From a virus (taxonomy: Duplodnaviria > Heunggongvirae > Uroviricota > Caudoviricetes): 64,000 nt of DNA. How positions within the stretch are numbered: the first letter of the stretch is position 1; every line of letters begins with the position of its first letter. A program made the position numbers and the translations under genes. Positions 4,966-59,794 of this stretch are shown piece after piece. The DNA is taken from the IMG/VR virus record IMGVR_UViG_2740892439_000009; one strand, written 5' to 3'. Below the pieces are notes generated by a model. That model had not been told where the DNA came from. It did not search any database and saw nothing but the letters and a program-made list of their open reading frames with translations.

Positions 4966-5315
4966 TTTCCCGCGATGAATCCGGGACAAGGACCGTCTCA
5001 ATAGATCTCGGATTCTATTTCAGTCGTGTAGTTGCTCACTACGCCGTGTCGCCATTAGAGCTACTGAACGTTCCTCTCACGATGTTCTGGATGCTCAGTC
5101 GCAATATAGACCGTCTGCGTGCGGAAGAGGATGTCCGCAACTTACAAGTCGCTCGTGCGTCCCAGGCGGATGGCGAGGCTGTGAAGGCGTTCATGGAGGG
5201 TTTGCAACTCAGGATTGGAAGACCAGTCGTAACAGATAAAGTCTACGATCCAAGCCAGGATAAGGCAGACCCTGACGCCAAAGAGCAACTGATGCAAATA
5301 TTTGGCAGAGGATGA
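4929..5315 (+). CDS. Possible T-region reached by -1 frameshift from the G-like chaperone
   Basis: -1 frame opens at 4929 inside the 3' end of the G-like ORF and runs to 5315; no canonical slippery heptamer seen. Confidence 0.25.
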   Translation, partial: RKRKSGWRRGKVISRDESGTRTVSIDLGFYFSRVVAHYAVSPLELLNVPLTMFWMLSRNIDRLRAEEDVRNLQVARASQADGEAVKAFMEGLQLRIGRPVVTDKVYDPSQDKADPDAKEQLMQIFGRG

Positions 5316-5622
5316 CAAGGGAATGTCACAAAACGTAGAGTTTATCCTGTCGCTGGAAGACAAACAGTTTACAGCGTCAATCGATCGTGCGGGGAAACTG
5401 CTTACTCGATTTGGTGAGCAGGTAACAAAGCCTGCTCAAAAAATCCAAACCTTTGAACGCTCTTTGGGTTCGGTCGCCCGTATCATTGGCGTTCTGGAAA
5501 GCAAGCTCGATTCTACGGCAGATAAACTACAGGATGTAGCTGCCGGTTTTGAGCTTGCTTCAGATGCTACGCGTAAAATGCGTGGCAACATCACCAGCCT
5601 CAATTCTGGTCTTAAAGCCTGA
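5302..5622 (+). CDS. Tape measure protein, N-terminal segment
   Basis: Coiled-coil-like ORF; the next frame opens at 5616 and continues the same sequence character. Confidence 0.45.
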   Translation: MAEDDKGMSQNVEFILSLEDKQFTASIDRAGKLLTRFGEQVTKPAQKIQTFERSLGSVARIIGVLESKLDSTADKLQDVAAGFELASDATRKMRGNITSLNSGLKA

Positions 5623-5681
5623 TTGAGCGCGTCGATACGACAACTTCTTCAGTAGATAAACTCACCGCGTCATTACGTAAA

Positions 5682-7415
5682 GTGCAATCAGAGCTAAATG
5701 ATTTCTCTGATTGGGCGACCTATGCAAGCAAAAGCGCAAGCCGCTTTGGTACGGAGGTCAAAGAAGCCTCTGCGTCCGTGAGTGGCATGAATACGCGCCT
5801 TAATACCACGACGAAGCGACTCAGTAATTGGGGTGTCACAACGAGTCAGGCTGCCGAGGGACTGAAAAAGGTTCGTGAGCAGATGGACGAAGTTATCGGA
5901 CGTCAGCAACTGATTAGCAAGCCGGTACGCGTTCGTACATCTGGAAGTGGCGATGGTGGTAGCGGGCGGCGTAGCGGCGCTTCTGGCCATAGCGGTAAAA
6001 GTAACGAAGGAGGTATGTTCTCTGGCCTTCGTGGCAACATTTTCCTGCTTGGCGAGATCGGAGATGCAGCCAGAACGGTTACTGACATCATGTTTGGGTG
6101 GCAGAAGCCTATTGTTGAAGCTGCGGCCGAAATGGAACGTATGCGGGTGATGCTTCGAGGGTTGAATAAGGAGAAGTCCAACCCGGGCCAGGCTGCCGCT
6201 GATGATATGAAGTACATCGTAGACATGGCTCAAAATGCGCCGTTCGCGATGCAGGCGTTAACAGACTCCTTCGTGAAGTTTCGTTCTGCTGGCTTAGATC
6301 CAACCGATGGTTCTCTGAAGGCGCTGGTGGACTCCGTTGCTCGTTTTGGTGGTGATAGTGAGCTGTTGAAACGTGCGGCTGTGGCCGTTCAGCAGATGTC
6401 CGGTAAGGGCGTTGTGTCAATGGAAGAGCTACGTCAGCAATTAGGTGAAGCCGTTCCTAACGCGATGCAGGCAATGGCAGACGCCGCAGGCATCACTATG
6501 GGGGAACTGACTAAAGCCGTTGCCAGCGGTACGGTTGAGGCAAAACAGGCGTTGTCTCTGATGTTTGTTGGTCTGCGTGCGGAGAATGAGAACGCAGCGA
6601 AAGACATGATGCAAACCTACACAGGTGCGCTGGCGCAACTTCAGACGTCATTCACGTTATTTGCTGATCGGGTTGGTCAGGCCGGATATCTGGATTCTCT
6701 ATCGAAGGGGATGAAAGAACTGGCTTCAATCATGAATAGCGCCGAAGGGATTTCGTTTGCCAATTCTTTAGGTTCGGGGTTAACAACGGCAATCGATGGG
6801 TTGCGTCAGCTTGCTCAATGGTTAGCAAAGAACCAAGAGCTGGTAATTAATCTCGGTAAGGTCGTGGCCGCGATGGTTGCGTTCAAACTGATGCGAGCAG
6901 GGATCATGGGGGTAGTTGGCGCTGGGAGCCAGATGGTTAGCACCTTTGCCACGATGGCGACCGCCATACAGACTCCATTTAACCTCGGCGCTACAGCAGT
7001 AACTCGATTCAATCGTGCGGCACGTATGGGGCTGGCTCCGATCCCCTCTCTTATTTTCGCCATCCGTGGGGCGATTACGGGGCTTAAAGGCGCTTTTGCT
7101 GGATTAACGGCGTTCATTGCAGCAAACCCTATAGGGGCAGCATTTACAGTTGCCACTGTAGCTGTTGCTGGCCTAATCACGTACATGACCATGCTCCGCA
7201 GCGAAACTTCAAAGGTCGTTGACGAGATTAGGAAAATACCAGAAGCGATGACAGCGGCCAAACGTGCACAAATGGCCGACCGCGCAGAAAAGCTCGAAAA
7301 GCAGATTCTTGCTGATCAACGAGCATTAAAAACTGGTGAGGGTGTTAATTACGTATCTAACTCTGCCGGTGTTATTACTCACAAAGAGTCGAAGCTGACA
7401 TCGAAGCACGCCTGA
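5682..7415 (+). CDS. Tape measure protein, middle segment
   Basis: Gly/Ser-rich stretch, long hydrophobic segments, position upstream of M/L/K/I/J. Confidence 0.65.
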   Translation: MQSELNDFSDWATYASKSASRFGTEVKEASASVSGMNTRLNTTTKRLSNWGVTTSQAAEGLKKVREQMDEVIGRQQLISKPVRVRTSGSGDGGSGRRSGASGHSGKSNEGGMFSGLRGNIFLLGEIGDAARTVTDIMFGWQKPIVEAAAEMERMRVMLRGLNKEKSNPGQAAADDMKYIVDMAQNAPFAMQALTDSFVKFRSAGLDPTDGSLKALVDSVARFGGDSELLKRAAVAVQQMSGKGVVSMEELRQQLGEAVPNAMQAMADAAGITMGELTKAVASGTVEAKQALSLMFVGLRAENENAAKDMMQTYTGALAQLQTSFTLFADRVGQAGYLDSLSKGMKELASIMNSAEGISFANSLGSGLTTAIDGLRQLAQWLAKNQELVINLGKVVAAMVAFKLMRAGIMGVVGAGSQMVSTFATMATAIQTPFNLGATAVTRFNRAARMGLAPIPSLIFAIRGAITGLKGAFAGLTAFIAANPIGAAFTVATVAVAGLITYMTMLRSETSKVVDEIRKIPEAMTAAKRAQMADRAEKLEKQILADQRALKTGEGVNYVSNSAGVITHKESKLTSKHA

Positions 7416-7486
7416 AAAAAAATCAGGAAGAGTATCAAAAGATAACCGGCACGATAGCTCTTGGTGACGGCGCTGTAGCAAAGCGT

Positions 7487-9844
7487 TTGGCTAAAGAGGC
7501 TGCCGAATCTCAGATTGAGAAAATTCGAGCGGAAAACCAGATTTTCGCGGCAACATTCGTGAAAGCCCGGCAGGAGGCTCTGGATAAGATCCAGAAAATC
7601 AATGATGACGGTTCACTTTCAGATGATGAAAAGAACAAGCTATTGGCACCGTTACGTGAAACGGTAAACAAAAGCTATCTTGAGCCTGCGCAAAAACTGG
7701 TTGATTCACTTTCTTCTCGTAAGAATGCGACCGAGAAGCAAATCGCGACTCTTAATGATCAGCTTGAAAAAGCCAAAAAGGATGGAAATACCGAGCAGAT
7801 CCAGAAACTGCAAGGCAGTATTCGTGGTTATCAGGAGCATTTGGAAGCCGTTGCTCAGGAGCTGACTCAGGCAGAGTTCGAGAGAGATAACGCGGCCAAA
7901 ACTGGTAAGGGCGTAATGTCAAACCAGGGGACTGTTCTTGGGTTAGGTACAACTGATAAAGCTGCTCAGAAGGCGCTGGCGCAATATATGCGAAACCAGA
8001 TGGATTCTGCGACTTATCAACGTACTTTGCCTGACGGCACTCCGATGATGGACTTCGAAGGTAAGCCGATTATTGGGCCTAAACAACTCAAGACGCAGCT
8101 TAATTTGCAGAAAGCATCCAGTGCCAGCTCTCTGGAGAAAATGAGCGATGAAGAGCGTGCCGCAGCCATTGCTGCACTGACTAAAGCTCGTGAACAGGAT
8201 GCAGCAGCCGCCGAGAAAGCAGCCCAACGATCAGCTAACGCCTCGCAGCGTGCGGCCAAGAAGGAACAGGCAGCGCAACAGAAATTGGCAGCCGGATACC
8301 AGAAGGCTCTGGACAAAGCCGATCAGCTTATGGGGCAAATGGGTGAAAGTTCAAAGGCCACCGTGTCGTTTGATCAGTCGCTGCGTGATGTCACTAAGTC
8401 ACTAACCGATCTTGCAAACGCCACGCCTAACGAGTTTATCTCGCAGGAGATGGTTGACCAGGCTAAAAAACGTCTCGCGGATTTGAGGAACGCTACCCCC
8501 GAATACAGTGAAATGTTTAATCGCCGCAACGTCGAGCAAATGATCAGCGCTTGGGCGCCGGAATCGGATTCGATTATCAGCGCAGGCTTGATGCAAAGCC
8601 ATGAGGAGAAGGCTGCAGAGTTTTCGGATACCTACAACCGCAATCTTAAGGCGCTGATCGAGCTGCGTGATAAGGCGACTGACCCGAAAATCATCTCGCT
8701 TTACAACAAGCAGCTTAATCAGCTGGTGGCCGCTGGCAATAATGCGCTGATTAAGCAAACAGGTACAGCGACCCAGCAGTTGGCTCTGGAGTATGAGAAC
8801 CTGGCTGAGCAGATTGAGGGCACCTGGACAGATCTGTTTAGCGGCTTAACTGACACGCTTACTGACTTTGTTGTTAACGGAAAGATGAGCTTCTCCAGTC
8901 TGGCCACATCGATCCTTAAAGACATCACCAACATGGTCGTGAAGACCCAGATCACTCTGCCTCTCATGAATATGTTGGGAATGGGAACGACAAACGCCGG
9001 CAATGCACAAAGTGGAAATCTCATGAATAGCGTAGCGTCTGCGATCGCTAATCAAGGGGTTCAGCTAGGTAATTCTGGTGGGTCGGTGGCCAATGGGGAT
9101 AAATCTGTCGGCGAGGCCACTAAGGAGACAGCCTCCGGCGTGAATTCGATGGGGCAAGCGTCTCAGAATGCGGCCAGTGGTTTAAGTCAGGCGGTGAATG
9201 GCGTCTGGGACTGGACTAAGTCATTGTTCACCGGTACTGACGCTACGAAAGATCAAACCAAAGCGGTTAACAGCAGCATCCTCAGTATGGGGAATCTGTC
9301 TACCGCGGCTGGGGCGCTGGCAGCTACATTCGCCATGGTAGGTGCTTCGTCGTCGAGTTCGTCCAGCCGTTGGCTGAATTTCGGTCTGTCACTGGCCAGT
9401 ACCGCAGTGTCCGCCTGGGCTGGGTCTTCGACGCCATCAGGCTCAAAGCCAAATGTGAAGAAGCACGCCAATGGCGGCATCTTTGGCAGGGAAGGGGTTG
9501 TGCCTCTGAGAGCTTATCAGAAAGGCGGAATTGCCACCTCACCACAGTTGGCGATGTTTGGCGAGGGCTCAATGAACGAGGCTTACGTTCCGTTGCCAGA
9601 TGGTCGAACCATTCCAGTCACACTTTCTGCAGAGTCGGCTGGAAAGAGCACGGGTAACGCGGTGTCCCCTGTCTCGATTCAGATCAATGTAACCAAGGAT
9701 GGCCGAACCAGCGAGAGCAGCAGTGGAAGCGAGAGCAGTCTCTGGAACGGCGCAGCACGGCAAATCAAGTCGATTGTGCTTGAGACGATTGCCGAAGAGA
9801 AACGTTCTGGTGGTTCACTTAATCCGCATACCACCAGAGGGTAG
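7487..9844 (+). CDS. Tape measure protein, C-terminal segment
   Basis: Frame open from 7361; long coiled-coil-like region; frame changes next to an A8 run at 7415-7422. Confidence 0.65.
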   Translation: MAKEAAESQIEKIRAENQIFAATFVKARQEALDKIQKINDDGSLSDDEKNKLLAPLRETVNKSYLEPAQKLVDSLSSRKNATEKQIATLNDQLEKAKKDGNTEQIQKLQGSIRGYQEHLEAVAQELTQAEFERDNAAKTGKGVMSNQGTVLGLGTTDKAAQKALAQYMRNQMDSATYQRTLPDGTPMMDFEGKPIIGPKQLKTQLNLQKASSASSLEKMSDEERAAAIAALTKAREQDAAAAEKAAQRSANASQRAAKKEQAAQQKLAAGYQKALDKADQLMGQMGESSKATVSFDQSLRDVTKSLTDLANATPNEFISQEMVDQAKKRLADLRNATPEYSEMFNRRNVEQMISAWAPESDSIISAGLMQSHEEKAAEFSDTYNRNLKALIELRDKATDPKIISLYNKQLNQLVAAGNNALIKQTGTATQQLALEYENLAEQIEGTWTDLFSGLTDTLTDFVVNGKMSFSSLATSILKDITNMVVKTQITLPLMNMLGMGTTNAGNAQSGNLMNSVASAIANQGVQLGNSGGSVANGDKSVGEATKETASGVNSMGQASQNAASGLSQAVNGVWDWTKSLFTGTDATKDQTKAVNSSILSMGNLSTAAGALAATFAMVGASSSSSSSRWLNFGLSLASTAVSAWAGSSTPSGSKPNVKKHANGGIFGREGVVPLRAYQKGGIATSPQLAMFGEGSMNEAYVPLPDGRTIPVTLSAESAGKSTGNAVSPVSIQINVTKDGRTSESSSGSESSLWNGAARQIKSIVLETIAEEKRSGGSLNPHTTRG

Positions 9845-12407: not shown

Positions 12408-15400
12408 TTGAACATGTATCAGTTCAAGAAAAAGAGATTGCCCCTCCTGATTGCGGGAGCGGGCGGCAAAAAGAGCTCAGGCTCAAGCCGTACACCAGTT
12501 GAAGCGGATGATACCGTTAATTCGCGGGCCATGGCGTCTATCCTCGATCTGCTCGGGGAAGGTGTTGTTGGTGGGCTTATTAACGGTGCTAAATCTATCT
12601 TCATCGATGGCGTGGCGCTGGAGAACGAAGACGGATCATTCAACTATTCCGGTGTAACCTGGGATTTCCGGGATGGTTCACAAGACCAAAGCCCGATGCC
12701 TGGTTTCGATTTTGTCGAAACGCCAAAGGCCGTTAACACACAGCTGAAAACCACAAACGCGGTTACGGTCGCCATCGATAACGACGACGCTGATCGTGTC
12801 CGAGTGATCATGAAGTTCCCGTCGCTGCGTAGCATTGACAAGAAAACAGGGGACACAAACGGTACTTCTGTCCAGTTTAAGTTCCAGCTGGCCAATGGCA
12901 ATGGCTCTTTCTATGACGTGATTGCTACAGGTGAGAGCAGCTCTGACGTGAAGCTGACTGCGAAAAAGACTGGTGTCTACTACCGCAGTTACGAAATCCA
13001 ACTTCCAAAGCCTGGGCGCGCCTATAAAGTGCGCGTGCTTCGTCTCTCCGCCGACAGCAACGATCAGTATCTCTTTAACGATACCTGGGTCGACTCTATC
13101 GGTGAGATCGTTGACACCCCAATGAACTACCCGAACTCCGTTCTGGTTGGCCTTAAGGTTAACTCTGAGCAGTTTGGTAGCTCTATGCCGTCACGTTCGT
13201 ATCTTATCCGTGGCCTCAAAATCCGTGTGCCTTCGAATTATGATGAAAATACGAACACTTATAACGGCGTTTGGGATGGAACCTTTAAGCTTCTGTCGTC
13301 TTCCAACCCTGCCTGGATTCTGTTCGATCTGCTGACCAATGCTCGTTATGGCCTCGGCAAATTTGTTTCGGAGTCAATGATTGACCTTGGTAAGCTTTAT
13401 CAGATCGGTCGCTACTGCGACGAAGAGGTTGATGATGGCTTTGGCGGCAAAGAAAAACGCTTTGCAATCAACACCCAGATCACCAGTCGTCAGGACGCTT
13501 ATCGTCTGATTCAGGATATTGCCGGCGCTTTCCGTGGCATGGTTTTCTGGGCTGGTGGCATGGTGAATATCATGCAGGACAGCCCGTCTGACCCTGTCAT
13601 GCTCTTTACCAATGCGAACGTAAAAGATGGCCTGTTTACCTATAAAGGCTCAGCTCGAAAAGACCGGCCGTCCGTAGCGTTGATCACTTATAACAACAAA
13701 CAAGACGGCTATAAGCAGAACGTTGAGTATGTTGAAGATCAGGAAGCGATGGCCCGATACGGGGAGCGCAAGACCGAGGCCGTTGCGTTCGGATGCACCA
13801 GCCGAGGTCAGGCTCATCGTGTAGGTTTGTGGCTGCTCTATACCGCGCGTATGGAGTCAGACATGATCACCTTTACCGCGGGCCTGGACGCCTCGTTCCT
13901 GATGCCGGGCGAAACCGTTCTGATCCAGAACAAATATCGTGCCGGCAAACGCAATTCCGGTCGCATTGTCTCTTTCACCAAAAACAGCATCACCCTCGAT
14001 GCACCTGTCTCTCTGAAAAAGAGCGGTAGCTTCATCCGTATCATCAATCAGGAAGGCAAAATCGTTGAGCGAGACATCAACGAGACCGGCGACAACATCA
14101 CTAAAGTTACCTTCAAGACGGCGTTGGCCACAGCCGATCAACCAGTAGCGAATGGCGTCTGGACGATCACCGAACCAGACCTTGTTCCAATGCGGGCGCG
14201 CGTTGTCGCTATCGCGCAAGGTGAAACCCCGGGGTCGTTTGATATCACGGTGGTGCAGAACAATGCATCTAAGTACCAGGCGATTGATAACGGGGCCGCG
14301 CTCGTTCCAGAAAATACGACGGTTCTTGATCCCACATATTCCAAACCGAGCAACCTGGTCATCTCAGAAGGCACCTATCTGTCCAGTCCGGGCAACTTGT
14401 CCGTGAAGCTGATGCTTGCCTGGGAAGGTAAATCACCAGAATACTGGGTCAGCTGGCGCCGCTCCGACGAGGGCAACGTCTCCAACTGGCAATCTGCCCG
14501 CGCCACGGAAGAACAATATGAAATCGTCAATGTTGCCGAAAATGGGCGATATGACTTCCAGCTGTATTCCGTTTCCTTCGGCGGCAAAAAATCCGAGATC
14601 ATTACTGCTGTCTATCAGGTAAAAGGCACGATGACGCCGCCAGGGGCGCCCACATCACTCACCGCGGTGGGGGATTATCGTAACGTGGTATTGAATTGGG
14701 TTAACCCTGATTCAGTCGACCTCGCGCAGATCAACGTGTATGCGTCCAAAACAAATAAGCTGGACACCGCAACACTCATTGCTCAGGCCGCAACAACGAC
14801 TTTCACTCACGCTGGCCTGGGTGACAACGAGACCTGGTATTACTGGATTCGTGCGGTAAACAAACGTGGGATGGTAGGCCAGCCGAACTCGAACCTCGGT
14901 ACAGAGGCCACCACTCGCGACGTATTGTCTTTCCTGAAAGATAAGATCACATCTTCTGAACTCGGCAAGGAGCTGCTCGACGAAATCGACAGCAAAGCCA
15001 CTCAGGAGGCGGTAGACAACGCCATTGGCGAGGTTCAGAACTCAGTCAACGAGTCTATCCAGCAAGTTGAAAACGATCTGGCGCAAACCTCCTCCGAAAT
15101 TAAGGCGCAGGTTGACTCTGTCAATCAGTCGCTGAAAGAGGACATAAAGACCGTCAATCAGACGATTGTTGACAACATCGATACCGTCAACCAGACGATC
15201 AATACCAACATCTCCAACGTAAACAACCAAATTGAAGCTGCAAAACAGTCTATTAAAGACGGCGACGCGGCTCTGTCGCAGGAGATTAAGAATGCGCAGT
15301 CATCACTGACAACGTCGCTGTCCCAGACCAGCAAAGATCTGACTGCGGCCATTCAGAAAGAGACGAATGACCGTATTGCAGATGTTAATGACGCAGCCAA

Positions 15401-15614
15401 GCAAGCGGCCGACCAACTGCTGAGCGCGAAGAATGAGCTGAAAACCTCTATCGATAGCTTGTCTGAGGTTGTGACCTCCGGTGACGAAAACCTCGCGCGA
15501 CAGATCTCGCAGATTGCCGCTGGCACAGGGGAACAGTTTGACTCTCTGAAAATCTGGTATTTCGACCAGGACGCTGAAGGCTGGACGGAAGATGATAATG
15601 CTACACGCCAATGA
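12408..15614 (+). CDS. Tail tip / host specificity protein, lambda J-like N-terminal and central part
   Basis: Motifs NPAWILFDLLTNARYGLGKF, GFGGKEKRF, AMARYGERKTEAVAFGCTSRGQAHRVGLWLL and KITSSELGKELL parallel lambda J; stop overlaps next start (ATGA). Confidence 0.8.
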   Translation: MNMYQFKKKRLPLLIAGAGGKKSSGSSRTPVEADDTVNSRAMASILDLLGEGVVGGLINGAKSIFIDGVALENEDGSFNYSGVTWDFRDGSQDQSPMPGFDFVETPKAVNTQLKTTNAVTVAIDNDDADRVRVIMKFPSLRSIDKKTGDTNGTSVQFKFQLANGNGSFYDVIATGESSSDVKLTAKKTGVYYRSYEIQLPKPGRAYKVRVLRLSADSNDQYLFNDTWVDSIGEIVDTPMNYPNSVLVGLKVNSEQFGSSMPSRSYLIRGLKIRVPSNYDENTNTYNGVWDGTFKLLSSSNPAWILFDLLTNARYGLGKFVSESMIDLGKLYQIGRYCDEEVDDGFGGKEKRFAINTQITSRQDAYRLIQDIAGAFRGMVFWAGGMVNIMQDSPSDPVMLFTNANVKDGLFTYKGSARKDRPSVALITYNNKQDGYKQNVEYVEDQEAMARYGERKTEAVAFGCTSRGQAHRVGLWLLYTARMESDMITFTAGLDASFLMPGETVLIQNKYRAGKRNSGRIVSFTKNSITLDAPVSLKKSGSFIRIINQEGKIVERDINETGDNITKVTFKTALATADQPVANGVWTITEPDLVPMRARVVAIAQGETPGSFDITVVQNNASKYQAIDNGAALVPENTTVLDPTYSKPSNLVISEGTYLSSPGNLSVKLMLAWEGKSPEYWVSWRRSDEGNVSNWQSARATEEQYEIVNVAENGRYDFQLYSVSFGGKKSEIITAVYQVKGTMTPPGAPTSLTAVGDYRNVVLNWVNPDSVDLAQINVYASKTNKLDTATLIAQAATTTFTHAGLGDNETWYYWIRAVNKRGMVGQPNSNLGTEATTRDVLSFLKDKITSSELGKELLDEIDSKATQEAVDNAIGEVQNSVNESIQQVENDLAQTSSEIKAQVDSVNQSLKEDIKTVNQTIVDNIDTVNQTINTNISNVNNQIEAAKQSIKDGDAALSQEIKNAQSSLTTSLSQTSKDLTAAIQKETNDRIADVNDAAKQAADQLLSAKNELKTSIDSLSEVVTSGDENLARQISQIAAGTGEQFDSLKIWYFDQDAEGWTEDDNATRQ

Positions 15615-18600
15615 GCGTCACCAGCGATGGCTGGCTGAAAGCGAACAATCCGACCTCAACCTGTCGTTCCCCTAACGGCTTGACGATCGATGCCCATGCT
15701 TATCGTTTCATTAAGATGCGCATTAAAAAGGTTGGCAACCCAACCTGGAACGCCAAAATGTTCTGGATCGGCGCTGATGAAACCGGCTGGAATGCTGGTC
15801 GCTCCGTGGTTATCAATGAACCGGAATACGATGACAAGGGTATTGCGATTCTGACCCTGCACGACATTGAGTGGCGAGATTCGACAACGATTCGTCGTTT
15901 CCGCTTCGATTTCACTTCAGGTCAGGATGCGGACAATTACCTGTTATTCGACTGGATCGCCGTCGGTCGACCGACGCCGGGCGCAGGCATGGCCGCGTTA
16001 CAGGAAGAGCAGCAGGCTCGTGCGAATGCAGATACCGCCGAAGCGCAGGCGCGCAGCACATTGGCTGCACAAATCCGCGGTTCCTCTGAAAGCGGAAATC
16101 TGGACGACATTCGCTCCGGTCTGATCTATCAGGAGAAAAATGCTCGTATCACCGCCGATGCTGCGGAAGCGAGTGCGCGTGAATCCCTGCAGACTGAATT
16201 CAACAGAAACAAAGCCTCTGTTGCAGAAGAGCTGCATACGCTGTCCACTGAACAAGCTTCTCAGGCAAGCAAGATTACCGGGTTGCAAACAAGCCTTGGC
16301 CAGAAGGCCGATGCCAGTGCAGTACAGACAATTTCCCAGAAGGTTGAAGAGCAGGGCAACACCCTTAAATCACAAGGTGCGGCATTGTCTACGCTGGATA
16401 ATCGCGTAGGAAGTGTTGAGTCTGGTGTATCTGCGAATAGCAAGGCGATCACGGGTCTACAGTCGACCGTAACCCAGCAGGATAAAACCCTTAGCAGCCA
16501 GAGTGAAAGCATCACCACCCTGAATAACTCGCTGAGCGATATCCAGAGCGATACCGATACTGCCAAAAGCAACCCGAGTAATTTGCTGGTTAACGCCTCC
16601 TTTGAGCGTGACCTGGCAGGGTGGTCTGCAGGGAACAGCGTATCCAATGTTATCAAAGCGAGTGCGCCCCATTCTGGTAGCAAAATTCTTGTTTGCGCCG
16701 CTGGCACGGTGCAAATCACGCAATCTGTAAGCGTCGTCGAAGGGCGGACATACAAGCTGTCCTCTTTTGTGCGCTGCACCACTGATGCGGTGATCAGCAG
16801 CCCTGGCAACAACAAACTGCGTATTGGCGCGGCTACGTTGCTCAAAGAGATTCCGATCCGTCCGGAGAATCTGCCCAAAGATGAAACATGGAAGGAGGTC
16901 TCTGATACCTGGAAGGCGACGCTGACCGGTAAAGTTGACGTATCGATCATGTCTTCTCTCAAAACCGGTTCTCAGTACTTCGATGATGTTGGTTTTGTTG
17001 ACGTCACTGATGCTCTGGCGATTGAGGCGAACGCCAGTGCCACCAATGCTTTGACCTCTCGGGTATCGTCTGTTGAGGGCACCATCACAAGTCAGGGGCA
17101 ACAGATCACTTCGATGCAGAACAGTATCAAGAACAAAGCTGACGCCTCAGCTGTGACTAATCTGACAAACCGCGTAACTGCTGCCGAAAATCAGATCTCC
17201 AGCCAGTCCCAGAGCATCACCAGCCTGTCAAATTCGCTGGATAACGCCAATGCTGATGCGGATGCCTCGAAAGCGATCATCGGCAACATGCTCAAAAACA
17301 ACTCTTTTGAACGTGGTTTCGAAGGTTGGGAGTATGTTGGTTGGACTCTGCTGGAGGCCCAAAACCCCAAATCGGGGAAATACATCATCCAGGCGGGCAA
17401 ACTGGCCTCTGGCGGTGACTCGGGCTGCAACCAAACGATCGAGCTGCAGGCTGGCAAGACTTATCGTATCGGCGCATGGGTTCGCAAATCCGCTGACTTC
17501 GCGATTAATAATGCCGGCAACAACAAAATTAGCCTTCGAAACGCAGATCTTACGCCAATAAAGGATATCCCGATCACTGGCGCCGGGCTGTCGACGAACT
17601 GGGCGCTTATTAGCGGCGAGTATACGCCAGCCAAAACCGCGAGCGTGGTTGTGTCTCTGCGCGCAAGTGTCGCTTCAGGCTATATGTATCTCGATGACGT
17701 CTTCTGCGTTGACGTGAGCAATGAGAAAGCGATTGATGCGACGTCCAATGCGTTATCAACCCTCAACAGCACCGTGACCCAGCAGGGAAAAGACATTACG
17801 TCTAACTCCAACAGCATCACTTCGCTGTCAAACCAGATGGTTAACGGCCGCCAGAACATGTGGGTGCGTAGCGTATACAACGTACAACTGGCGAACAATA
17901 CCACTGAGCCGACCTTTAGCGATATCAACGGTAAGGCGCCAATCTCGATCGATGAGGTTCCTGACGCGGCAAAACTGGACTTTGTGAGCGCCGGCAGTTA
18001 CGTGATCGCGCATTACAAAGCCTTCGTGAAAGTCAATGCTGATACCACCATCACTATGGCACCAGGGTCTCGTGTTTTTGATGATACGGGCGCCGTGTAC
18101 GTGAACGGTGTTAGGGTTGCCTTTGGTAATGCGAGCTGGAATACGGTTAGCTTTGATCTGAAAGCTGGCTGGAGCACGGTTGAGTTCTTGGTGAACCAAT
18201 GGACTGGTCAGGCTTACATTAACCTCGGCTTTAAACTGTCCGAGAAGGTAGCCCAGCTGAATTCTGCTCTTGGGATGAACGCGCTTTCGAATGCCATTAG
18301 CGCCGTCACCTCAAACGTCAGCACCGTAGGTGATCGCGTCACGAGCACCTCACAGAGCGTTACTGACCTGCGAAATAGCCTCGAACAGACCAACGCAAAT
18401 CTAGCGAATAAGGCAGATGCACAGGCGCTGTCTACGCTGCAAAATACGGTCTCCAAGCAGGGGGATACGATTTCCAGCCAGGGTAACAGCATCACGAACC
18501 TGAATAACACCCTGACCGCTGCCAGAAACGCCGGTGACAACCTGATCCCGAACTACGATTTCCTGCAGGGTGCAACTGCGTGGGATATCCAGTATCCGGC

Positions 18601-21600
18601 GGGCGTCGCTTTTGGCAACTTCGGTGATGGTAAGGCTGGGGTTAAGCTGAACCGGACGACCACGACCAGCCCAGGCATCTTCTCCAACAACAACAAGCCG
18701 CTGCCGCTTAATGGTCAGCGCAAATATCGTGTTGTGGTTAAAGCCAAGGGCGTGTCCGGGGCGATGAACATGTTGATCCGGCGCCAGAACAAAATCGGCC
18801 AGACCGACAGCAATTATGAAGATAAAAACGTCACACTCACCAGTGAGTGGCAGACCATTACCTGGGAAACTGGGCTTACTGCCTCTAACGCTGATGGTCA
18901 GAACTTTAAGCTTTACGCGCACCCGGCTAATGCCGAAATCTGGGTTGATACCTTTAAGGTCTTTGATATCACGGATGAGGTGAAGATCAAGGCTAATAGC
19001 GATGCGCTGTCTACGTTGTCGAGCACGGTGACGCAGCAGGGTGACAAGATCACCAGTCAGGGCAACAGCATCACTAAGTTGACCAATGACCTCGAAGTCG
19101 CTGACGCAAACATCGCGAAAAAGGCCGATCAGTCGGCAGTCACTACGCTGACAGGTCGGGTAGAGAAGACGGAGTCCGGTCTGACGGCGGCGAACAGCAA
19201 CATTACGTCGCTCAGCAGCTCTCTGAACCAGCAATCCAAACGCGGCGCCAATCTGCTTCCTGATGGCACTTTTGAAAGCTACGCGGTTGGCCATAATCTA
19301 TCAAATAATCGCGTTATCGTGACCACTGATGACTCGCATGGCGGTAGTAAGTGCATCCGTGTGACGCGTCCGAATGATTACAACGCTAACGCAACTGATA
19401 ACAGCGATAATCACATTTTCAGCGGGTTCCAGGTTCGCGATAACGCAGTCTTCTATATGGAATGCTGGGTTAAGCTGGATGCCAAGAGCACCGCTATGGC
19501 CGAGAATGCGCAGATCTCCATTGGCTTGTCGCTCCAGTATCAGGATAACTCCTGGCAGTGGCCAGCAGTAACCAAAGCGGCGAAAGATCTGTCTACAGCT
19601 CAATGGACGAAGGTTTCTGGTTACCTGAAATCAACGAAGAGCGGTATTAAGCAGGCAATGGTGAGGATTTCTATTCCTAACGTTAGCAGCGTTAAGGCGG
19701 GAAACTCATTCCTCATTGATGACCTGGTCATTACCGAAGTGACTGATGCCTACAATGCGCAAAGTACAGCAGACGCTAATGCCAATGCGATTTCGACACT
19801 GGACTCGACCGTCTCCCAACAGGGTGACCAGATCACCAGTCAGGGTAACAGCATCACCAAACTGACAAATGACCTGGCAACGACCAATAACAACGTCAGT
19901 AAAAAAGCGGATCAGAGCGCTTTAAGCGTGTTGTCCGGGCGCGTCGATCAAACAGAATCGGGCTTATCCTCTGCGAATAGCAGTATCACTGCGCTTAATT
20001 CATCTGTACGCGCAGGGAATGCGACAAGTGGCGATTTGATTAGCAACCCGACATTTGACCCAGAGTTTAGTCAGATGGGCTTCACTGTGGTTTCCAGCTC
20101 GTCTGAGGGCGTGCCAGCCAATTGCCCATACGCTTATGTTGCACGCATTGCGGCTCGCGACCATCACCCCAATTTTGCTGCTATTCCGGCGACATTGGGG
20201 GATGTCTATGAAATGTCTGCTCTCGTCGCGTGTGGCACCGGCTCCGCTGATTTCAACCTGTATCTCGGAACCGCAACACGGCCAAGCGGCAGCGTGGGCG
20301 CGCCTCTGTCATCCGGCGGCAACCGCAAGGCGTCGGCCACATGGCAGCGAGTAACCTGGCGATTCAAAATTACTCAGGGGATTGTCGATCGCGGCTTCTT
20401 CCGTCCATTCCTGCAAATTAACCAGTCCAGCCCATTCGGCACCGTCTGGTATGTGACTGACTGGCATCTGCGGAACGTGACCGACTCCTCCAAAGTCCAG
20501 GATTCCCTCGACGCCACGGCGAAAGCGGTTGATTCGCTGACCTCTACGGTAAATCAGCAGGGGGAGAATATCTCCAGCATTGGTACACGTACTACCAATC
20601 TTGAGAATAATTTGAGAACAACAAATGCAAACGTTGCTCAAAAAGCGGACGCCAATGCTCTGACGGCACTGACCAACCGTGTTACCCAGACCGAAAAAGA
20701 CATTAACTCAACGAGTTCTTCTGTCACGAATCTGAACAACAAGGTTGATGCCATTTCTGTTGGCGGTACAAACCTGATTAAGAACTCTGGCGATATGACC
20801 GGCTGGTCGAACGTTACCAGCGACACGTATCGTGGTAACGCGGTAATTGGCGCAACTGTAAAAGCCGGCTCCGGCTACAAGGATCTGCGGGAAATCACGC
20901 TTGAGTCGCCGGTCGATGCAGGTGAGTACGTTTACAGCTTCTATGCAAAAGGCGGTGTTGCTGGCCAGATTATGACGGCGTTCTTCTACAATCCGAACAC
21001 TACAACGTCTATCGAGACCAGCCAGGGTGCGAAAGGTAACAACAGTGATGGCCGTGCGCAGTTCACGCTGACCACTTCATGGTCCCGCTATTGGGTTAAG
21101 TGGAAACAGACACCTACCACGAGTACCAAGCGCCTGATTCTGTGTCGTATCGAGAGCAATACCTCCAAAGACCAGACGGTGTACATCAACAGTCCGAAGT
21201 TTGAGGTAGGTAACGTTGTTTCCGACTGGAACGAGTCTCCGTCTGATAGTGCCAGTGCGTCGGCTGTGGACTCGCTGACAACGAAAGTGAATCAGCAGGG
21301 CACTTCCATTAGCTCTATCGGAAATCGCACCACATCGTTGGAAAACGGGTTATCGACAGCTCAAAACAATATTGCCAAGAAGGCTGATGCTTCTGCATTG
21401 CAGGATCTCCGGAACACGGTGACATCTCAGGGTGATGATTTAACTGCGGCGAACAGCAGCATTACCAGCCTGCATGCCTCGATGAACCGTCGCACTGTGT
21501 TTACTGTCACTGCACGGGGTAATGGCAACAGCGTTACCCATGGGGTGTTTGATGAAAGCGGCAAGAATCTGTTTACCCCTGGTCGCAGCTGGGCGCTGGT

Positions 21601-24570: not shown

Positions 24571-24697
24571 CATGGCGCCCCTTTGGGGCGCCCACTAAAC
24601 CGTATTAACTCAAGGAAGAGTAAATTATGGCAATGTATGAAGTTGGCACCATAACGGGTGCTGCAAACCAGGCAAAGGTTACAGGTATTTCCACTAA

Positions 24698-34087: not shown

Positions 34088-34488
34088 AAGCCAACGGCAT
34101 GGTGCCTGATATGGTTGTTGTCGACTACGCAGATTTGATGCGTGCCAGTTATGACCTTCGTGATGATCGCGCCAACATTCGTAGTATCTACACCGATTTA
34201 CGTGCTCTTTATGACAAACATAACGTTGCTGGAATCACGGCATCGCAGACAAACCGTGAAGGTGGCGCGTCAGAAGTTGCCACAATGATGCACGCCGCCG
34301 ACAACATCGAAAAAGTACGTATTGCTGACCTGGTAATAACGATCAACAAAACCGAAGAAGAAGAAGCGAAAGGAGAGGCTCGTCTCTACTTTGCTGGTTC
34401 ACGTAACCAGCAGGGAGGGATCAGCATTCGTGTTAAACAAAACCTCGAACAAATGCGCTTCATTGAGCGAATCTTAGACGTTACCTAA
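34018..34488 (+). CDS. DnaB-like helicase, C-terminal segment
   Basis: MVVVDYADLM Walker B-like and ITASQTNREG motifs; overlaps previous ORF by 70 nt in a different frame. Confidence 0.6.
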   Translation: MWVVERPSGSMSPADLDRMLNSMKANGMVPDMVVVDYADLMRASYDLRDDRANIRSIYTDLRALYDKHNVAGITASQTNREGGASEVATMMHAADNIEKVRIADLVITINKTEEEEAKGEARLYFAGSRNQQGGISIRVKQNLEQMRFIERILDVT

Positions 34489-40143: not shown

Positions 40144-40148
40144 ATTTA

Positions 40149-40235: not shown

Positions 40236-40239
40236 AATT

Positions 40240-40315: not shown

Positions 40316-40538
40316 TACAACGATAAGATCATTACGGTTAATCGTCGTTCATGTGCACAATGACTGGTCGAAAGGTAGTGATCTTACCGTTGTGGTGGAT
40401 TCGCAGACTGATGCGATAGCTTTCTTGGATGTTAGGGAAATGCGGCCGCAAATCTTCCCTTTCGCGAGCGGTGATCGTCCGTAGTCCTAATTGGCTGCAC
40501 CGTATGCCGGAGATTCAGTACCGGCCACCACAACGGCC

Positions 40539-40625
40539 GGAGAGTAGGGAGCATGGTGCTCAAGCGGTCTTGAAAACCGTCCCATTGCGCAAGCGATGAT
40601 GGTTCGATTCCATTACTCTCCGCCA
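40539..40625 (+). tRNA. tRNA-Ser (anticodon TGA), long variable arm
   Basis: Acceptor GGAGAGT/ACTCTCC, anticodon loop CTTGAAA, T-loop TTCGATT, CCA. Confidence 0.75.
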
Positions 40626-40779: not shown

Positions 40780-40803
40780 AAAGGGGCTTCGGCCCCTTTT
40801 CTT
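40780..40803. terminator. Bidirectional rho-independent terminator
   Basis: AAAGGGGC ttcg GCCCCTTTT flanked by T/A runs on both strands. Confidence 0.6.
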
Positions 40804-42014: not shown

Positions 42015-42040
42015 TAATTAGGCTCCCGTTAAACCAAAAA

Positions 42041-42862: not shown

Positions 42863-42938
42863 TTTACACCTTGTGGAAAGCCAGTTTAGTTCTGTAAATA
42901 GTATCACACGACAGGCGGCTATTCTTCTATCAATAAAT

Positions 42939-45656: not shown

Positions 45657-47036
45657 ATGTCTAAAAAACGTTCCATCAAAGAGGTTCAGGACTTCCGTGA
45701 CAGTGTAAAACGAGTAGTCGCTCTCCTTTCAGGTAAAAACATCCCTGTTGCAGAACGAGGGGACGACGCTTATGTACGCTATAACGATGATGGAGAGCCA
45801 ATTCTCGTAAACATCCCATCAATCCCGGATAACGCAACACCGGCATTGATGAATGCTGTGCGCGGATTTCTCGATCATGAGGTTGCTCACATTTTGTTTA
45901 CCGATATTCGTGTGTCCAACAAAATGAGAGAAAAAGGACGCGTTCCTTCCTGGTCGCTATGGAATGCCTTAGAAGACGTGTTCATCGAGCGAAAAATGGG
46001 GCAGGTCTTTAACGGAACAAGACGTAATCTGATGGCAACTCAGCGCCTTATAATCGAAAAAGTCTTTAAACCAAAGGCTTCAGAGGCTATTGCTTATTGT
46101 GGCAAAGATCAGCGCGCGCTTTTTCTAAACTTCTTTCTCTGTCCGGTTGTAAGAGCCTGGGATGGCCAAGCACCGTTCGTAGATTTCATGGATGAATATT
46201 GGCCTGTCATTGAGAAACCAATTTCATTATTAAAAGAACATGGTATCGATGTGGCCGTGCGTAACATGTCTTGCACCGAGGATTGTGTAAAGGTGGCTGC
46301 GACCATAGCTAAGATCCTCAAAGACACTGAAAGTGAAAGCAAAGGTAAGGAGTCAGCTCCGGGAAAAACTTCCGATCCTTCAGACGCTGACCAGACGGAT
46401 GCCTCTGGAGAAAACAATGAAGACAACGAAGATCATGAGACACCCTCATCGTTAGATAATCACAAATCTATCGAATCAGAATCACATAGTAAGCACAAAC
46501 ATGATAATAACGACAGCGATGATTCAGATAATTCTGAATCATCAGAAACAATATTCGATGATACAGAAAATGATAAAGAGGTATCAGATTCTGATGCTTC
46601 TGATAACGCGGCGTCAGAATCATTAACCGCTGACCACGAAAAAAGAAAAACGACAGAAGACGGCTCTTCAGATATCCCAACTCCGTCAAAAATGAGTCTG
46701 GAAGAGGCTTTAGAGGAGCTGGATAGCATAGAAGATGAAGTCGGAGGCATGACAGAAGATGCTCTATCCGAAACGATTAAAAGCGAGTTAACAGAAAGCT
46801 CGAAAAGCGAATACAGGCCATACAATCGCTCATACGACTTCATCGGCTCGATTGATCAGGCAGAAGCCATATCAAACGGCTTATTAAAACATTCTCCGAT
46901 ATTGATTTGGGAGGATATCCAATCAGCCGCTATCGCATCGTTCCTGAAGGCAACCAGCTCTTCGACAAATATATTGAAAAGCATCTTTCGTCAGGTGTTT
47001 CGTCGACGCTGGCAAAAGACCTGGAGCGAGCAATAG
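45657..47036 (+). CDS. CobT-like protein, N-terminal segment with acidic Ser/Asp-rich linker
   Basis: Long acidic low-complexity tract; continues into vWA segment in another frame. Confidence 0.45.
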   Translation: MSKKRSIKEVQDFRDSVKRVVALLSGKNIPVAERGDDAYVRYNDDGEPILVNIPSIPDNATPALMNAVRGFLDHEVAHILFTDIRVSNKMREKGRVPSWSLWNALEDVFIERKMGQVFNGTRRNLMATQRLIIEKVFKPKASEAIAYCGKDQRALFLNFFLCPVVRAWDGQAPFVDFMDEYWPVIEKPISLLKEHGIDVAVRNMSCTEDCVKVAATIAKILKDTESESKGKESAPGKTSDPSDADQTDASGENNEDNEDHETPSSLDNHKSIESESHSKHKHDNNDSDDSDNSESSETIFDDTENDKEVSDSDASDNAASESLTADHEKRKTTEDGSSDIPTPSKMSLEEALEELDSIEDEVGGMTEDALSETIKSELTESSKSEYRPYNRSYDFIGSIDQAEAISNGLLKHSPILIWEDIQSAAIASFLKATSSSTNILKSIFRQVFRRRWQKTWSEQ

Positions 47037-47764
47037 CAAGCAGAAACAGAGTTCAGTTTATACCGGGCCAGCGTCGGGGGCGCATTCATGGTTCTAGTAT
47101 CTACAGATTAGCAATGAATGATGATCGCGTGTTTCGTAAAAAAGAAGAATCTAAAGCCGTTAACGCCTGTGTTCAACAAGTGATTGATTTATCAGGTTCA
47201 ATGAGTGGTATAACGATACAATTGGCTCTTGCAAGTGCATATACCATCGCCGATGCCCTTGATCGAATAAATGTTCCCAACATTATCACCGGCTTCACTA
47301 CATTTGGTAGTCATATGGCGGCAGGAGAACTTAAGGCTGTCAAGTATGAGTTCTCTCGCTTTGAATCTTTAATGCTACCTATCATCAAAAATTGGAATGA
47401 AAAGGTAAATTCTCGCGAAGTTCGCTCACGTATGGGGTGCGTAGGCTACACATTCCCACTTCTTAATAACGTGGATGGTGAAAGCATAGCCAGCCTTGCA
47501 TCGTTATTTTCCGGTCGCATGGAGGACAGGAAGATCATGCTTGTTCTGAGTGACGGCGCGCCGTGGGCTGTTGGGAGAGGTTTTGACGCTCATTTGCGTT
47601 CGGTTGCGAAGCAAATTGAAACGCAGACTGACATTGATTTGATGGCAATTGGCATCATGACTGACGCACCGGAGAGATTTTACTCAAATCATGCCCTGGT
47701 AACGAGCGTTGATAGTCTTGGTTCATCTGTAGTTACTGAACTATCTCGTATCATTTTGAAGTGA
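46907..47764 (+). CDS. von Willebrand factor A domain segment (CobT-like C-terminus)
   Basis: MIDAS motif VIDLSGSMSG; overlaps previous ORF by 130 nt in a different frame. Confidence 0.55.
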   Translation: MGGYPISRYRIVPEGNQLFDKYIEKHLSSGVSSTLAKDLERAIASRNRVQFIPGQRRGRIHGSSIYRLAMNDDRVFRKKEESKAVNACVQQVIDLSGSMSGITIQLALASAYTIADALDRINVPNIITGFTTFGSHMAAGELKAVKYEFSRFESLMLPIIKNWNEKVNSREVRSRMGCVGYTFPLLNNVDGESIASLASLFSGRMEDRKIMLVLSDGAPWAVGRGFDAHLRSVAKQIETQTDIDLMAIGIMTDAPERFYSNHALVTSVDSLGSSVVTELSRIILK

Positions 47765-49095: not shown

Positions 49096-49274
49096 TCGTG
49101 CGTAAAGGATGTTTCGGCTCTCTTATCGCTGCTTCTGAAACTGGTAAGGCTTGTCTGGTGTGTCCAGACAAGCCCGATTGTCACCAATCAGCAAAAGAAG
49201 TTGCGATTTCGATGCATGGGAAGTTCGTAGCTTCCCCAATGACAAAATCAAAAAAACCAGAAAGGTAAAAACAC

Positions 49275-56368: not shown

Positions 56369-56441
56369 GAAGGAGTGTACCGGTGAATTATCTCTTCGTA
56401 GATGGCAATAGCTGGGTTATTACCACCAACAATCTGACAAA

Positions 56442-57326
56442 TTGCACAACGGCGAAATGGAAGTACAGGCTGCTTTCGGCTTTGTTAAGAACGTCCGTCG
56501 TTATGCCTCCATCCTCCATGCCCGACCTATGATTCTTTGGGATGGATTTAGTGACAAGCGTCGCGACTTTTACCCGGACTACAAAGCAAATCGCGACGAC
56601 GATCCTGATATGAAAAAGATGAAGGAAGGCTTTGCTATCCAGAAGCCATACATCCTCAAAATGATGACCGCGCTTGGAGTTACCCAACTCATTGCAAAAG
56701 ATGCAGAAGCGGATGATCTGGCCGGGCTGCTGGTATCCCGCATGGCACCGCAGCCAACCGTTGAACACATCTATCTGTTAACAGGCGATAGCGACTGGCT
56801 TCAGTTAGTTCGCGAAAACGTAAGCTGGGTAAGCCTGCGCGAAGACGCCAAAAACAAGCAGGTTAATTTTGAGCAATTTGCGGAGCTGACAGGATTCGCT
56901 ACTCCTCGCGCATTTTTGGAAGCAAAAGCATTACAAGGCGATAAATCGGACAACATTAGCGGTGTTGGTGGCATTGGTGCTGGCGGTGCGAAAGAGCTGC
57001 TGCATGAATGGGGAAGTGTCGCAACGATGGTACGCGGCATCAACGACGGCTCAATCGTGGTTGACAAAGGACGCCATAAGACCGCCTTCAACAAACTAGC
57101 GAAGAATGCCTTCAACGAGAAAACAGGCTGTCGAATGCTCGAAGCGTTCAAGAGAAACATCACGCTAATGAACCTGATTGAGACGAAGTTTCCGCCTACC
57201 GAAATCGAAACAATCAAAGGCAATCGTGACGTGAAAGCATTCGAGCAACTGTGCTACGAGCTGAATTTCCGTTCGTTCCTTGAAGACCTTGAAGTGTTTG
57301 TTCTTCCATTCGAAAGGTATTGCTAA
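56442..57326 (+). CDS. 5'-3' exonuclease / flap endonuclease (FEN, RNase H-like)
   Basis: LLTGDSDWLQL and DKSDNISGVGGIG motifs; expected N-terminal motif (NYLFVDGNSW, GTG 56383) lies in a different frame. Confidence 0.65.
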   Translation: MHNGEMEVQAAFGFVKNVRRYASILHARPMILWDGFSDKRRDFYPDYKANRDDDPDMKKMKEGFAIQKPYILKMMTALGVTQLIAKDAEADDLAGLLVSRMAPQPTVEHIYLLTGDSDWLQLVRENVSWVSLREDAKNKQVNFEQFAELTGFATPRAFLEAKALQGDKSDNISGVGGIGAGGAKELLHEWGSVATMVRGINDGSIVVDKGRHKTAFNKLAKNAFNEKTGCRMLEAFKRNITLMNLIETKFPPTEIETIKGNRDVKAFEQLCYELNFRSFLEDLEVFVLPFERYC

Positions 57327-57592: not shown

Positions 57593-57594
57593 TC

Positions 57595-58712: not shown

Positions 58713-58728
58713 ATAAGTACTTACTTAT
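58713..58728. promoter_or_regulatory. Palindrome ATAAGTACTTACTTAT
   Basis: ATAAGTA / TACTTAT arms with 2-bp spacer. Confidence 0.4.
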
Positions 58729-58760
58729 TATTTTCGCATAACAACCACATAGGAAAACAC

Positions 58761-58961
58761 ATGATCAAAATCTATCTATTGGCAGTAGCCACAGGCCTTT
58801 CAGTGGCTCTCATCTACGGTTTACTGGTTCCATCGCTGATTTCTACCAAGAGTGATTTAGCCGTCATGTTTGGAGTTGTCGTTGGTTTTGGCGCTCCAGT
58901 AATCGGTCTTATTGGTGGTCGTAAGTTTATTAACTCATTAATCAAAGCAAAGGGGAAATAA
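58761..58961 (+). CDS. Small hydrophobic membrane protein
   Basis: 66 aa, two hydrophobic stretches. Confidence 0.45.
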   Translation: MIKIYLLAVATGLSVALIYGLLVPSLISTKSDLAVMFGVVVGFGAPVIGLIGGRKFINSLIKAKGK

Positions 58962-59095
58962 GTAATGAAGAAAGGTTTACTTGCAGTTGCTCTGGCGGCT
59001 ATTTGCACAATGGGTCTTACTGGCTGTGATCGCGTGGAGCTGGATACGTTGGCATCAAAGTAAACAAATTAGGTGAAGACAAAGGGATTGGTGAA

Positions 59096-59794
59096 GTGGT
59101 TGGCGTTGGTCGCCAATGGACAGGTCTTAACACCGAACTTTACGTATTCCCAACCTTCAAACAAATGAAGACCTACGACGAGCCGTTCACATTCCAGATG
59201 AGTGACGGTACTGCTATTGGTCACAAAATTGGCGTTGCGTATCTGGTTAATCGTGACAAGGTAACGACGGTGTTCCAGACCTATCGCAAAGGCGTAGACG
59301 ATATCACCGAATCAGATCTGCGTCAGAAAATTGCCGACTCTCTAAACCGTTTGGCCAGCCGTATGACCACTGATTCATTTATCGACGGTGGTAAGGCGCA
59401 ATTGCTGGACAACGCACTTAAAGATATTCAGAAAGAGATGTCTCCGGTTGGTATTGAGGTACTGAGCCTGTCATGGGTTGGAAAACCTGATTACCCAAAA
59501 ACCGTCATTGAATCTATCAACGCCAAAGTAACGGCTAACCAGCGTACTCTGCAACGTCAGCAGGAAGTTGAACAGCGTAAAGCTGAGGCGAATATGCTAC
59601 GTGAACAGGCTAATGGTGAAGCTGATGCTATCCGTGCTCGTGCGCAAGCAGAAGCAGACGCCATTCGTCTGCGCGGTGAAGCTCTGCGTCAAAACCCGAA
59701 CGTTATGGAGCTGGAAGCCATCAATAAATGGAATGGCCAGTTACCGCAGTACATGACTCAAGGGGCTAACACTCCTTTCATTACAGTGAAATAA
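59096..59794 (+). CDS. SPFH/band-7 domain protein
   Basis: GYVGIKVNKLGEDKGI-type N-terminal region in frame upstream of the called start; a lipoprotein signal peptide (58965-59063) lies in another frame. Confidence 0.55.
   Translation: MVGVGRQWTGLNTELYVFPTFKQMKTYDEPFTFQMSDGTAIGHKIGVAYLVNRDKVTTVFQTYRKGVDDITESDLRQKIADSLNRLASRMTTDSFIDGGKAQLLDNALKDIQKEMSPVGIEVLSLSWVGKPDYPKTVIESINAKVTANQRTLQRQQEVEQRKAEANMLREQANGEADAIRARAQAEADAIRLRGEALRQNPNVMELEAINKWNGQLPQYMTQGANTPFITVK

Follow-up and report, generated by a model that had tools for sequence, protein, structure and literature searches.

The 64,000-nt stretch of DNA analysed in this study (IMG/VR record IMGVR_UViG_2740892439_000009, assigned to the Caudoviricetes; the whole stretch is referred to as the window) raises the question why so many of its conserved genes are interrupted by changes of the reading frame. 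A preliminary description of this sequence had listed eight such breaks and offered assembly errors or decay of the element as explanations, with programmed recoding or genuinely separate genes as the alternative to both. We estimate at roughly 0.92 the probability that the breaks are errors which Ion Torrent PGM sequencing left in the consensus of genes that are in fact intact, and that they reflect neither decay nor recoding.

The loci of record JUDV01000020.1 (GCA_001630855.1; 81,989 bp) match the window with 100% identity at the same coordinates, the window being positions 1-64000 of this record. JUDV00000000 is Escherichia coli RCE01, isolated from a patient with Crohn's disease (Rakitina et al. 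2017, BMC Genomics 18:544, PMC5517970). Its reads were produced on an Ion Torrent PGM (318 chip, 200-bp kit) and processed with MIRA 4.0 into a meta-assembly in which several (six) colonies were merged; the depositors caution about “artificial frame shifts”, which were corrected only in part, and state that with their correction tool the number of artificial insertions and deletions (indels) fell by a factor of only about 2.5 (PMC5517970). Frameshifts are a general weakness of Ion Torrent assemblies, which are over-represented among the RefSeq exclusions for 'many frameshifted proteins', and the errors differ from one sequencing to another (PMC12046094). With Ion Torrent PGM reads, MIRA 4.0 and the authors' own caution about frameshifts, the record thus stems from an indel-prone source.

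Judged by its sequence, the element of E. coli RCE01 is a plLF82/SSU5-like phage-plasmid, and an ordinary one once the breaks are repaired. The depositors themselves labelled the plasmid contigs of RCE01 plLF82-like (PMC5517970). In megablast searches the window matched Salmonella phage SSU5, SSU5-like phages of Klebsiella and more than 1,000 non-mobilizable plasmids of E. coli and Klebsiella. It is syntenic with, and 80-99.5% identical to, the SSU5/pHCM2/plLF82-type phage-plasmids of Enterobacteriaceae, and its membership in this group is borne out by similarity, by a gene order equal to that of annotated relatives (including RepB, the tail genes and DnaE) and by the combination of plasmid replication and phage modules. 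Genes for RepB, tail proteins, DnaB, primase, ligase, CobT, DnaE, the 5'-3' exonuclease FEN, RecA and an SPFH protein are common to the window and the SSU5-type elements. The nearest complete plasmids were E. coli pECAZ155_2 (NZ_CP019002.1; 99.4-99.9% identical over window positions 1-35399) and four others, all of which were compared together with their annotation. No identical record was found among INPHARED phages, PLSDB plasmids and RefSeq complete E. coli genomes, where the best match reached 99.4-99.5% identity.

Base-level alignment to these relatives revealed 11 deletions of 1 nt, no 1-nt insertions and 44 substitutions that are private to the window. This indel load is far above what chance or the usual assembly quality would give. 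Ten of the 11 deletions disrupt a total of eight genes, and the remaining one, at 49230, is intergenic:

5618..5619, plus strand: CCC shortened to CC in AAAG[CCC]TGA; tape measure gene, with a stop after codon 99; extra C in 4/4 complete-plasmid relatives.
7394..7394, plus strand: GG shortened to G in GAA[GG]CTGA (AGCC on the minus strand); tape measure gene, second break; extra G in 3/3 covering relatives.
15600..15600, plus strand: GG shortened to G in AAT[GG]CTAC; giant tail-tip fibre gene, first break; extra G in 4/4 covering relatives.
23262..23263, plus strand: CCC shortened to CC in CTA[CCC]GCGG; giant tail-tip fibre gene, second break; extra C in 13/13 relatives.
24700..24700, plus strand: GG shortened to G in AAGT[GG]TCGG; side tail fibre gene, near its start; extra G in 14/14 relatives.
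33999..33999, plus strand: CC shortened to C in GAG[CC]ACG; DnaB-like helicase gene, in the RecA-like domain; extra C in 15/15 relatives.
46867..46868, plus strand: CCC shortened to CC in AAG[CCC]ATA; CobT-like gene, between its CobT and CobT_C/VWA parts; extra C in 9/9 relatives.
49230..49230, plus strand: GG shortened to G in GTA[GG]CTTCC; intergenic, upstream of dnaE; extra G in 9/9 relatives.
56412..56412, plus strand: CC shortened to C in TAG[CC]TGG; 5'-3' exonuclease (FEN) gene, at about codon 10; extra C in 15/15 relatives.
59040..59040, plus strand: CC shortened to C in GAG[CC]TGG; SPFH lipoprotein gene, just after the lipobox; extra base in 15/15 relatives.
61354..61356, plus strand: AAAA shortened to AAA in AGG[AAAA]CTG; hypothetical gene of 70 aa at 61193-61404; extra A in 14/14 relatives.

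Length differences in long A/T runs at 40761, 43463 and 59830 are polymorphisms common to other plasmids and were excluded from this count. The comparison with close relatives, which the preliminary description had proposed as a check, thus showed the extra base at all 11 sites in every comparison plasmid (3-15 per site), with a single exception at 5618 that is treated below. Each of the eight breaks it had listed exists and equals one missing base (5618, 7394, 23262, 24700, 33999, 46867, 56412 and 59040), and its prediction of a missing G in AAGTGTCGG was exactly right for the lesion at 24700. The list was incomplete, as 15600, 49230 and 61354 had been overlooked, and the A8 run to which the second tape-measure break had been tied plays no part in it: the run (7416-7423) is identical in the relatives, and the G that is missing, at 7394, precedes it by 22 nt. 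For the lesion at 24700, the exact 24-mer across the deletion had no match in the viral_contigs and genome_contigs sets, and the intact 25-mer matches two IMG/VR contigs.

The addition of one base per site restores eight open reading frames (ORFs), whose lengths are consistent with the annotation of the intact genes (coding sequences, CDS) in the relatives:

5323..9844, plus strand: tape measure, about 1,507 aa after repair of 5618 and 7394 (1,514-aa ORF from an upstream TTG); a single CDS of 4,524 nt in the relatives.
12414..24570, plus strand: giant tail-tip fibre (J-like), about 4,052 aa when repaired (ORF of 4,054 aa); CDS of 12,159 nt in the relatives.
24627..26065, plus strand: side tail fibre with a Peptidase_S74 C-terminus, 479 aa when repaired; 1,440 nt in the relatives.
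33149..34488, plus strand: DnaB-like helicase, 446 aa when repaired; 1,341 nt in the relatives.
45657..47764, plus strand: CobT-like protein, 702 aa when repaired; 2,109 nt in the relatives.
56383..57326, plus strand: 5'-3' exonuclease (FEN), 314 aa when repaired (restored ORF of 331 aa); 945 nt in the relatives.
58965..59794, plus strand: SPFH/Band_7 lipoprotein, 276 aa when repaired; 831 nt in the relatives.
61193-61404, plus strand: hypothetical gene, 70 aa restored by repair of 61354.

The relatives annotate one gene where the window shows two or three ORFs, and in four of the five annotated relative records no gene aligned with the window carries a frameshift flag. That conserved motifs continue in the other frame, as had been noted before, holds at the level of Pfam domains, since single domains span the frames. 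The DnaB/RecA-like domain is divided between two ORFs (profile positions 2-67 and 111-249), the match to the N-terminal domain of FEN begins only at profile position 28, that to Band_7 only at position 22, and TMP_3 and Tape_meas_lam_C fall into separate fragments of the tape measure protein. The deletion at 15600 cuts the giant fibre into ORFs at 12408-15614 and 15611-23413.

The spectrum of the lesions is narrow. Every one of the 11 private 1-nt indels is a deletion (P = 0.0005 if insertions and deletions were expected at 50:50), ten of them shortened a run of 2-3 G or C residues (P = 0.0014 for G or C as the lost base), and in eight of these ten AGCC, read on either strand, became AGC (P = 2.5e-7, with the frequency of this context taken into account). 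The homopolymer-length spectrum is one-sided and context-biased, with all deletions in runs of 2-4 bases; within the window none of the 177 G/C runs of at least 4 bases was affected, and likewise no A/T run of at least 5 bases. Coding sequence holds 10 of the 11 deletions at a coding density of 91%, and the hits scale with gene length. The deletions were therefore placed without regard to selection, and the intergenic one at 49230 shows that they are indifferent to coding sequence. No nonsense mutation was found among the 44 private substitutions, and within the broken genes there was neither an insertion sequence (IS) nor a larger private deletion, so that the mixed spectrum of decay is not seen. 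The private substitutions comprised 19 synonymous and 16 non-synonymous changes as called, or about 10 non-synonymous ones if three doubtful ORF calls on the minus strand are left aside; against a neutral expectation of about 1:3, and with low statistical power, these numbers do not indicate the ratio of non-synonymous to synonymous rates near 1 that relaxed selection would leave. The genes of the tape measure, DnaB, FEN and side fibre carry no private substitution at all. The spectrum is that of a one-sided, context-specific base-calling error and not that of decay. Dcm (CCWGG) methylation or a long-read chemistry was considered as a source of the G/C bias and rejected, as CCTGG encloses only two of the 11 sites and the reads come from Ion Torrent.

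A second, independent assembly of the same plasmid provided a direct comparison. In exact-product look-ups, the frameshifted CobT fragment and the N-terminal fragment of the giant fibre were each found encoded in a Logan contig of run SRR1599274 (L013 and L032, respectively). Over 7,380 and 23,201 nt (30.6 kb), these two contigs show no substitution relative to the window and 1-nt indels as the sole differences; they therefore represent the same plasmid. At three of the seven comparable sites the Logan assembly is intact (5618 and 24700 in L032, 49230 in L013), and at four it repeats the deletion (7394, 15600 and 23262 in L032, 46867 in L013). It also contains deletions of its own. One at 44388 (TAG[CCC]AGG) splits the integrase gene and one at 11988 (AAGT[GG]TC) the gene of a tail assembly protein, both of which are intact in the window, the latter deletion affecting the same heptamer as the window's lesion at 24700; a third, at 23214, lies in L032. 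With no substitution between them but six discordant frameshifts, all of one motif class, the two assemblies cannot both be true to the DNA, and we conclude that the indels are technical. The deletions at 5618, 24700 and 49230 are artefacts.

Further look-ups were less informative. Neither the 312-aa N-terminal product of the broken DnaB gene nor the 232-aa SPFH product had an exact match in the SRR1599274 assembly, which in both cases is weak evidence against a shared break. The exact-product look-ups returned no match for the side-fibre fragment starting from the GTG at 24698 and for a 160-aa protein at 36665-37147, and a look-up via a neighbouring protein of 250 aa led to unrelated plasmids only and to no contig of the same isolate. 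The single comparison sequence that shares a deletion with the window is a Logan contig of a neighbouring run accession (SRR1596056_270, L026; equivalent to window positions 16-5869) from a divergent plLF82-like plasmid, which is 97-98.5% identical and carries the identical deletion at 5618, together with GCC/GGC deletions of its own at the window-equivalent positions 1204 and 1558. This contig probably originates from another patient's isolate of the same Ion Torrent project, and the recurrence of the 5618 deletion in a divergent plasmid fits a site-specific systematic error. Five other contigs that end exactly at 5619 (L027-L031) were dismissed as an effect of ascertainment, because a look-up with the exact 99-aa product picks contigs cut at this point.

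Almost certainly, short G/C runs were under-called by one base on the Ion Torrent PGM, and such under-calls survived both the MIRA assembly and the partial homopolymer correction by the depositors. In the real RCE01 plasmid, the genes for the tape measure, the tail-tip fibre, the side fibre, the DnaB-like, CobT-like, FEN and SPFH proteins and the 70-aa protein are most likely intact. Several points weigh against this explanation. The deletions at 7394, 15600, 23262 and 46867 were reproduced in the Logan assembly of SRR1599274, so they are not directly demonstrated errors. The comparison within the isolate spans seven of the 11 sites, with 33999, 56412, 59040 and 61354 lying outside it, and 59040 falls where real lesions recur in other plasmids. 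SRR1599274 and SRR1596056 were assigned to the RCE project by sequence identity and accession proximity rather than from metadata. Finally, the short G/C runs of 2-3 bases and their AGCC context differ from the long A-rich homopolymers which are typical for Ion Torrent errors (PMC12046094). The AGCC context may stem from a bias in the flows or the signal processing of the platform, and the depositors' correction may already have removed the errors that were polymorphic among reads, leaving behind this atypical spectrum. As SRR1599274 is probably among the read sets behind the deposit, its chemistry would not be independent of it. We infer the same kind of error at the four sites common to the two assemblies and at the four outside the comparison, and yet the four shared deletions could be real.

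A genuine pseudogenisation, in which a decaying and non-inducible RCE01 element would carry some real frameshifts (the four shared sites and possibly the SPFH lesion), is the alternative with the most to recommend it, and we still regard it as improbable. Phage-plasmids can persist as plasmids once their phage functions are lost, the deletions at 7394, 15600, 23262 and 46867 are present in both the deposit and the Logan assembly, and unrelated plasmids have natural SPFH disruptions at the same spot. The shared sites bear, however, the same signature of 1-nt G/C losses in AGCC as the sites shown to be artefactual, and the same error-prone chemistry stands behind both assemblies. Nonsense mutations are missing, as are IS elements and larger deletions in the broken genes, and the private substitutions are skewed toward synonymous changes. 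Moreover, an indel-to-substitution ratio of 11:44 in which insertions are missing does not resemble natural spectra such as those of E. coli mutation accumulation. Of the two explanations offered in the preliminary description, indel errors are strongly supported by the Ion Torrent/MIRA origin of the record and the discordant assemblies, whereas decay is disfavoured by the lack of nonsense mutations and IS elements, the synonymous bias and the narrow signature.

As the deposit is a meta-assembly of several colonies, and the single-run Logan assembly departs from it at six indel sites, some of the six merged colonies might truly carry indel variants, but such heterogeneity within the patient is very improbable: six frameshifts with zero substitutions over 30.6 kb are implausible for sub-lineages, and the deletions found only in the Logan assembly, which disrupt essential tail and integrase genes in addition, share the technical signature. 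Programmed recoding or truly separate genes, for which the single point in favour is the known occurrence of programmed frameshifts in phage tail genes (for example the G/GT-type pair at 4648-5315 described below), can be set aside almost entirely. All relatives have single uninterrupted ORFs at every site and none of the two-frame conservation that recoding would require, single Pfam domains are cut by the breaks, and the positions of the breaks vary between assemblies of the same isolate. The junctions are short G/C runs of the AGCC type and not of the form X XXY YYZ, and no slippery motif is common to the sites. Consensus errors in intact genes thus remain our preferred explanation for the breaks.

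The SPFH gene requires separate consideration. In exact-product look-ups, its 232-aa fragment was recovered from 12 further contigs of unrelated samples, none of which has the window's deletion. In these unrelated plasmids (L043-L056) the SPFH lesions lie within about 25 nt of 59040, just after the lipobox (window positions 59030-59060), a clustering that is partly due to ascertainment because the look-up was conditional on the exact 232-aa product. The lesions include a GAG to TAG nonsense mutation in two backgrounds and two different 1-nt deletions of a G. Two samples show junctions with the end of a multicopy IS, which differ in position and lie about 10-20 nt farther downstream; the 30-mer of this IS end is present more than once in 3,001 of 5,426 E. 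coli genomes. After every lesion the same 232-aa SPFH body remains. Natural disruption of this gene is recurrent, and the deletion at 59040 can therefore not be called an artefact from its context alone. That it is genuine and belongs to a natural hotspot at which the lipoprotein signal and the N-terminus of the SPFH protein are lost appears rather unlikely to us; separately, the four shared deletions could be real. If the former were true, it would point to recurrent selection to inactivate or relocalise the SPFH/Band_7 protein; if the latter, the RCE01 element would be a defective phage-plasmid.

The breaks are almost certainly a technical artefact without new biology, and the SPFH lesion hotspot is the sole by-product of biological interest. 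As the preliminary description had anticipated, they change how the record should be read, in that annotations have to be read through them: the eight conserved genes should be annotated as intact and neither as pseudogenes nor as novel split genes, and to infer a defective phage-plasmid in this Crohn's-disease isolate would be unsafe. The value of the result lies in this caution. The residual indel rate in the window is about one per 6 kb. If it were to hold over JUDV and the sister RCE assemblies, hundreds of false frameshifts would be expected by extrapolation, with an effect on pan-genome and orthologue counts. Gene-fragmenting indel errors have reportedly also been described for long-read assemblies by Watson and Warr in 2019. 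The window resembles long-read cases (PacBio or Oxford Nanopore Technologies; for example in the Kastor paper, PMC12007338) in its pseudo-pseudogenes, intact relatives and ORF repair by one base, and differs from them in platform, Ion Torrent being a short-read technology, and in error spectrum. With the artificial frameshifts known from Ion Torrent data (PMC5517970, PMC12046094) it shares single-base indels that fragment conserved genes and disappear in comparison with accurate relatives; such errors are not reproduced between assemblies, which in the window holds for three of the seven comparable sites. In contrast to the typical errors of this platform in long A-rich runs, those of the window are all deletions, mostly in G/C runs of 2-3 nt, with a bias to AGCC.

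The one place in the window where a change of frame is expected for biological reasons, and not as an error, is located directly upstream of the tape measure gene:

4648..5315, plus strand: tail assembly chaperone pair of the G/GT type, with a G-like ORF of 105 aa at 4648-4965 and an open -1 frame at 4935-5315 that overlaps its last codons.

This two-ORF layout is kept in all relatives. GAA-AAA-G at about 4937-4943 is a possible slip site, whose bases show no change in loci with identities as low as 94.5%. In public annotations, the second part of the pair appears as a separate hypothetical protein of 74 aa. With its small ORF upstream of the tape measure gene and the overlapping -1 frame, the pair is similar to the lambda-type G/GT programmed -1 frameshift, the slip site being a prediction. 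Unlike this system, none of the 11 lesions has a conserved two-frame layout; the pair itself shortly precedes the first break of the preliminary list and was not part of that list.

Independently of the window, the RefSeq 'complete' plasmid NZ_CP019283.1 (L007) has private indels of its own, each an extra T, at the window-equivalent positions 473, 488, 914, 1248, 1953 and 3834, and three neighbouring genes of this plasmid are flagged 'frameshifted' by PGAP. This is a separate case, likely of sequencing error in a reference record.

Compared with its SSU5-type relatives, the repaired window differs only in accessory islets, namely the AbiGi region, the tRNA array and the presence of a RecA intein. 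RecA of the window (57595-58668) is intein-free and has 357 aa. NZ_CP061757.1, NZ_CP151549.1 and a further relative (L021) encode a RecA of 779 aa with an intein and a LAGLIDADG homing endonuclease, which is annotated just as 'LAGLIDADG family homing endonuclease'. In a relative from Logan ERR5312252 (L044/L050; equivalent to about 49275-52793 of the window), the plasmid dnaE consists of parts encoding 787 and 389 aa with a gene for a 244-aa HNH/NUMOD3 endonuclease between them, which looks like the insertion of a mobile endonuclease. The tRNA array of the window (40069-40625) comprises Asn-GTT, Tyr-GTA, Thr-TGT and Ser-TGA, of which tRNA-Tyr is present in some relatives only, and is flanked by a divergent patch at 39486-39517. 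At 40803-42907 (minus strand), an islet with a low GC content (about 40%) carries genes for an AbiGi-family protein and a hypothetical protein of 403 aa on the opposite strand. The islet is present in NZ_CP061757.1 and replaced by other genes in other relatives, and is probably a variable defence islet.

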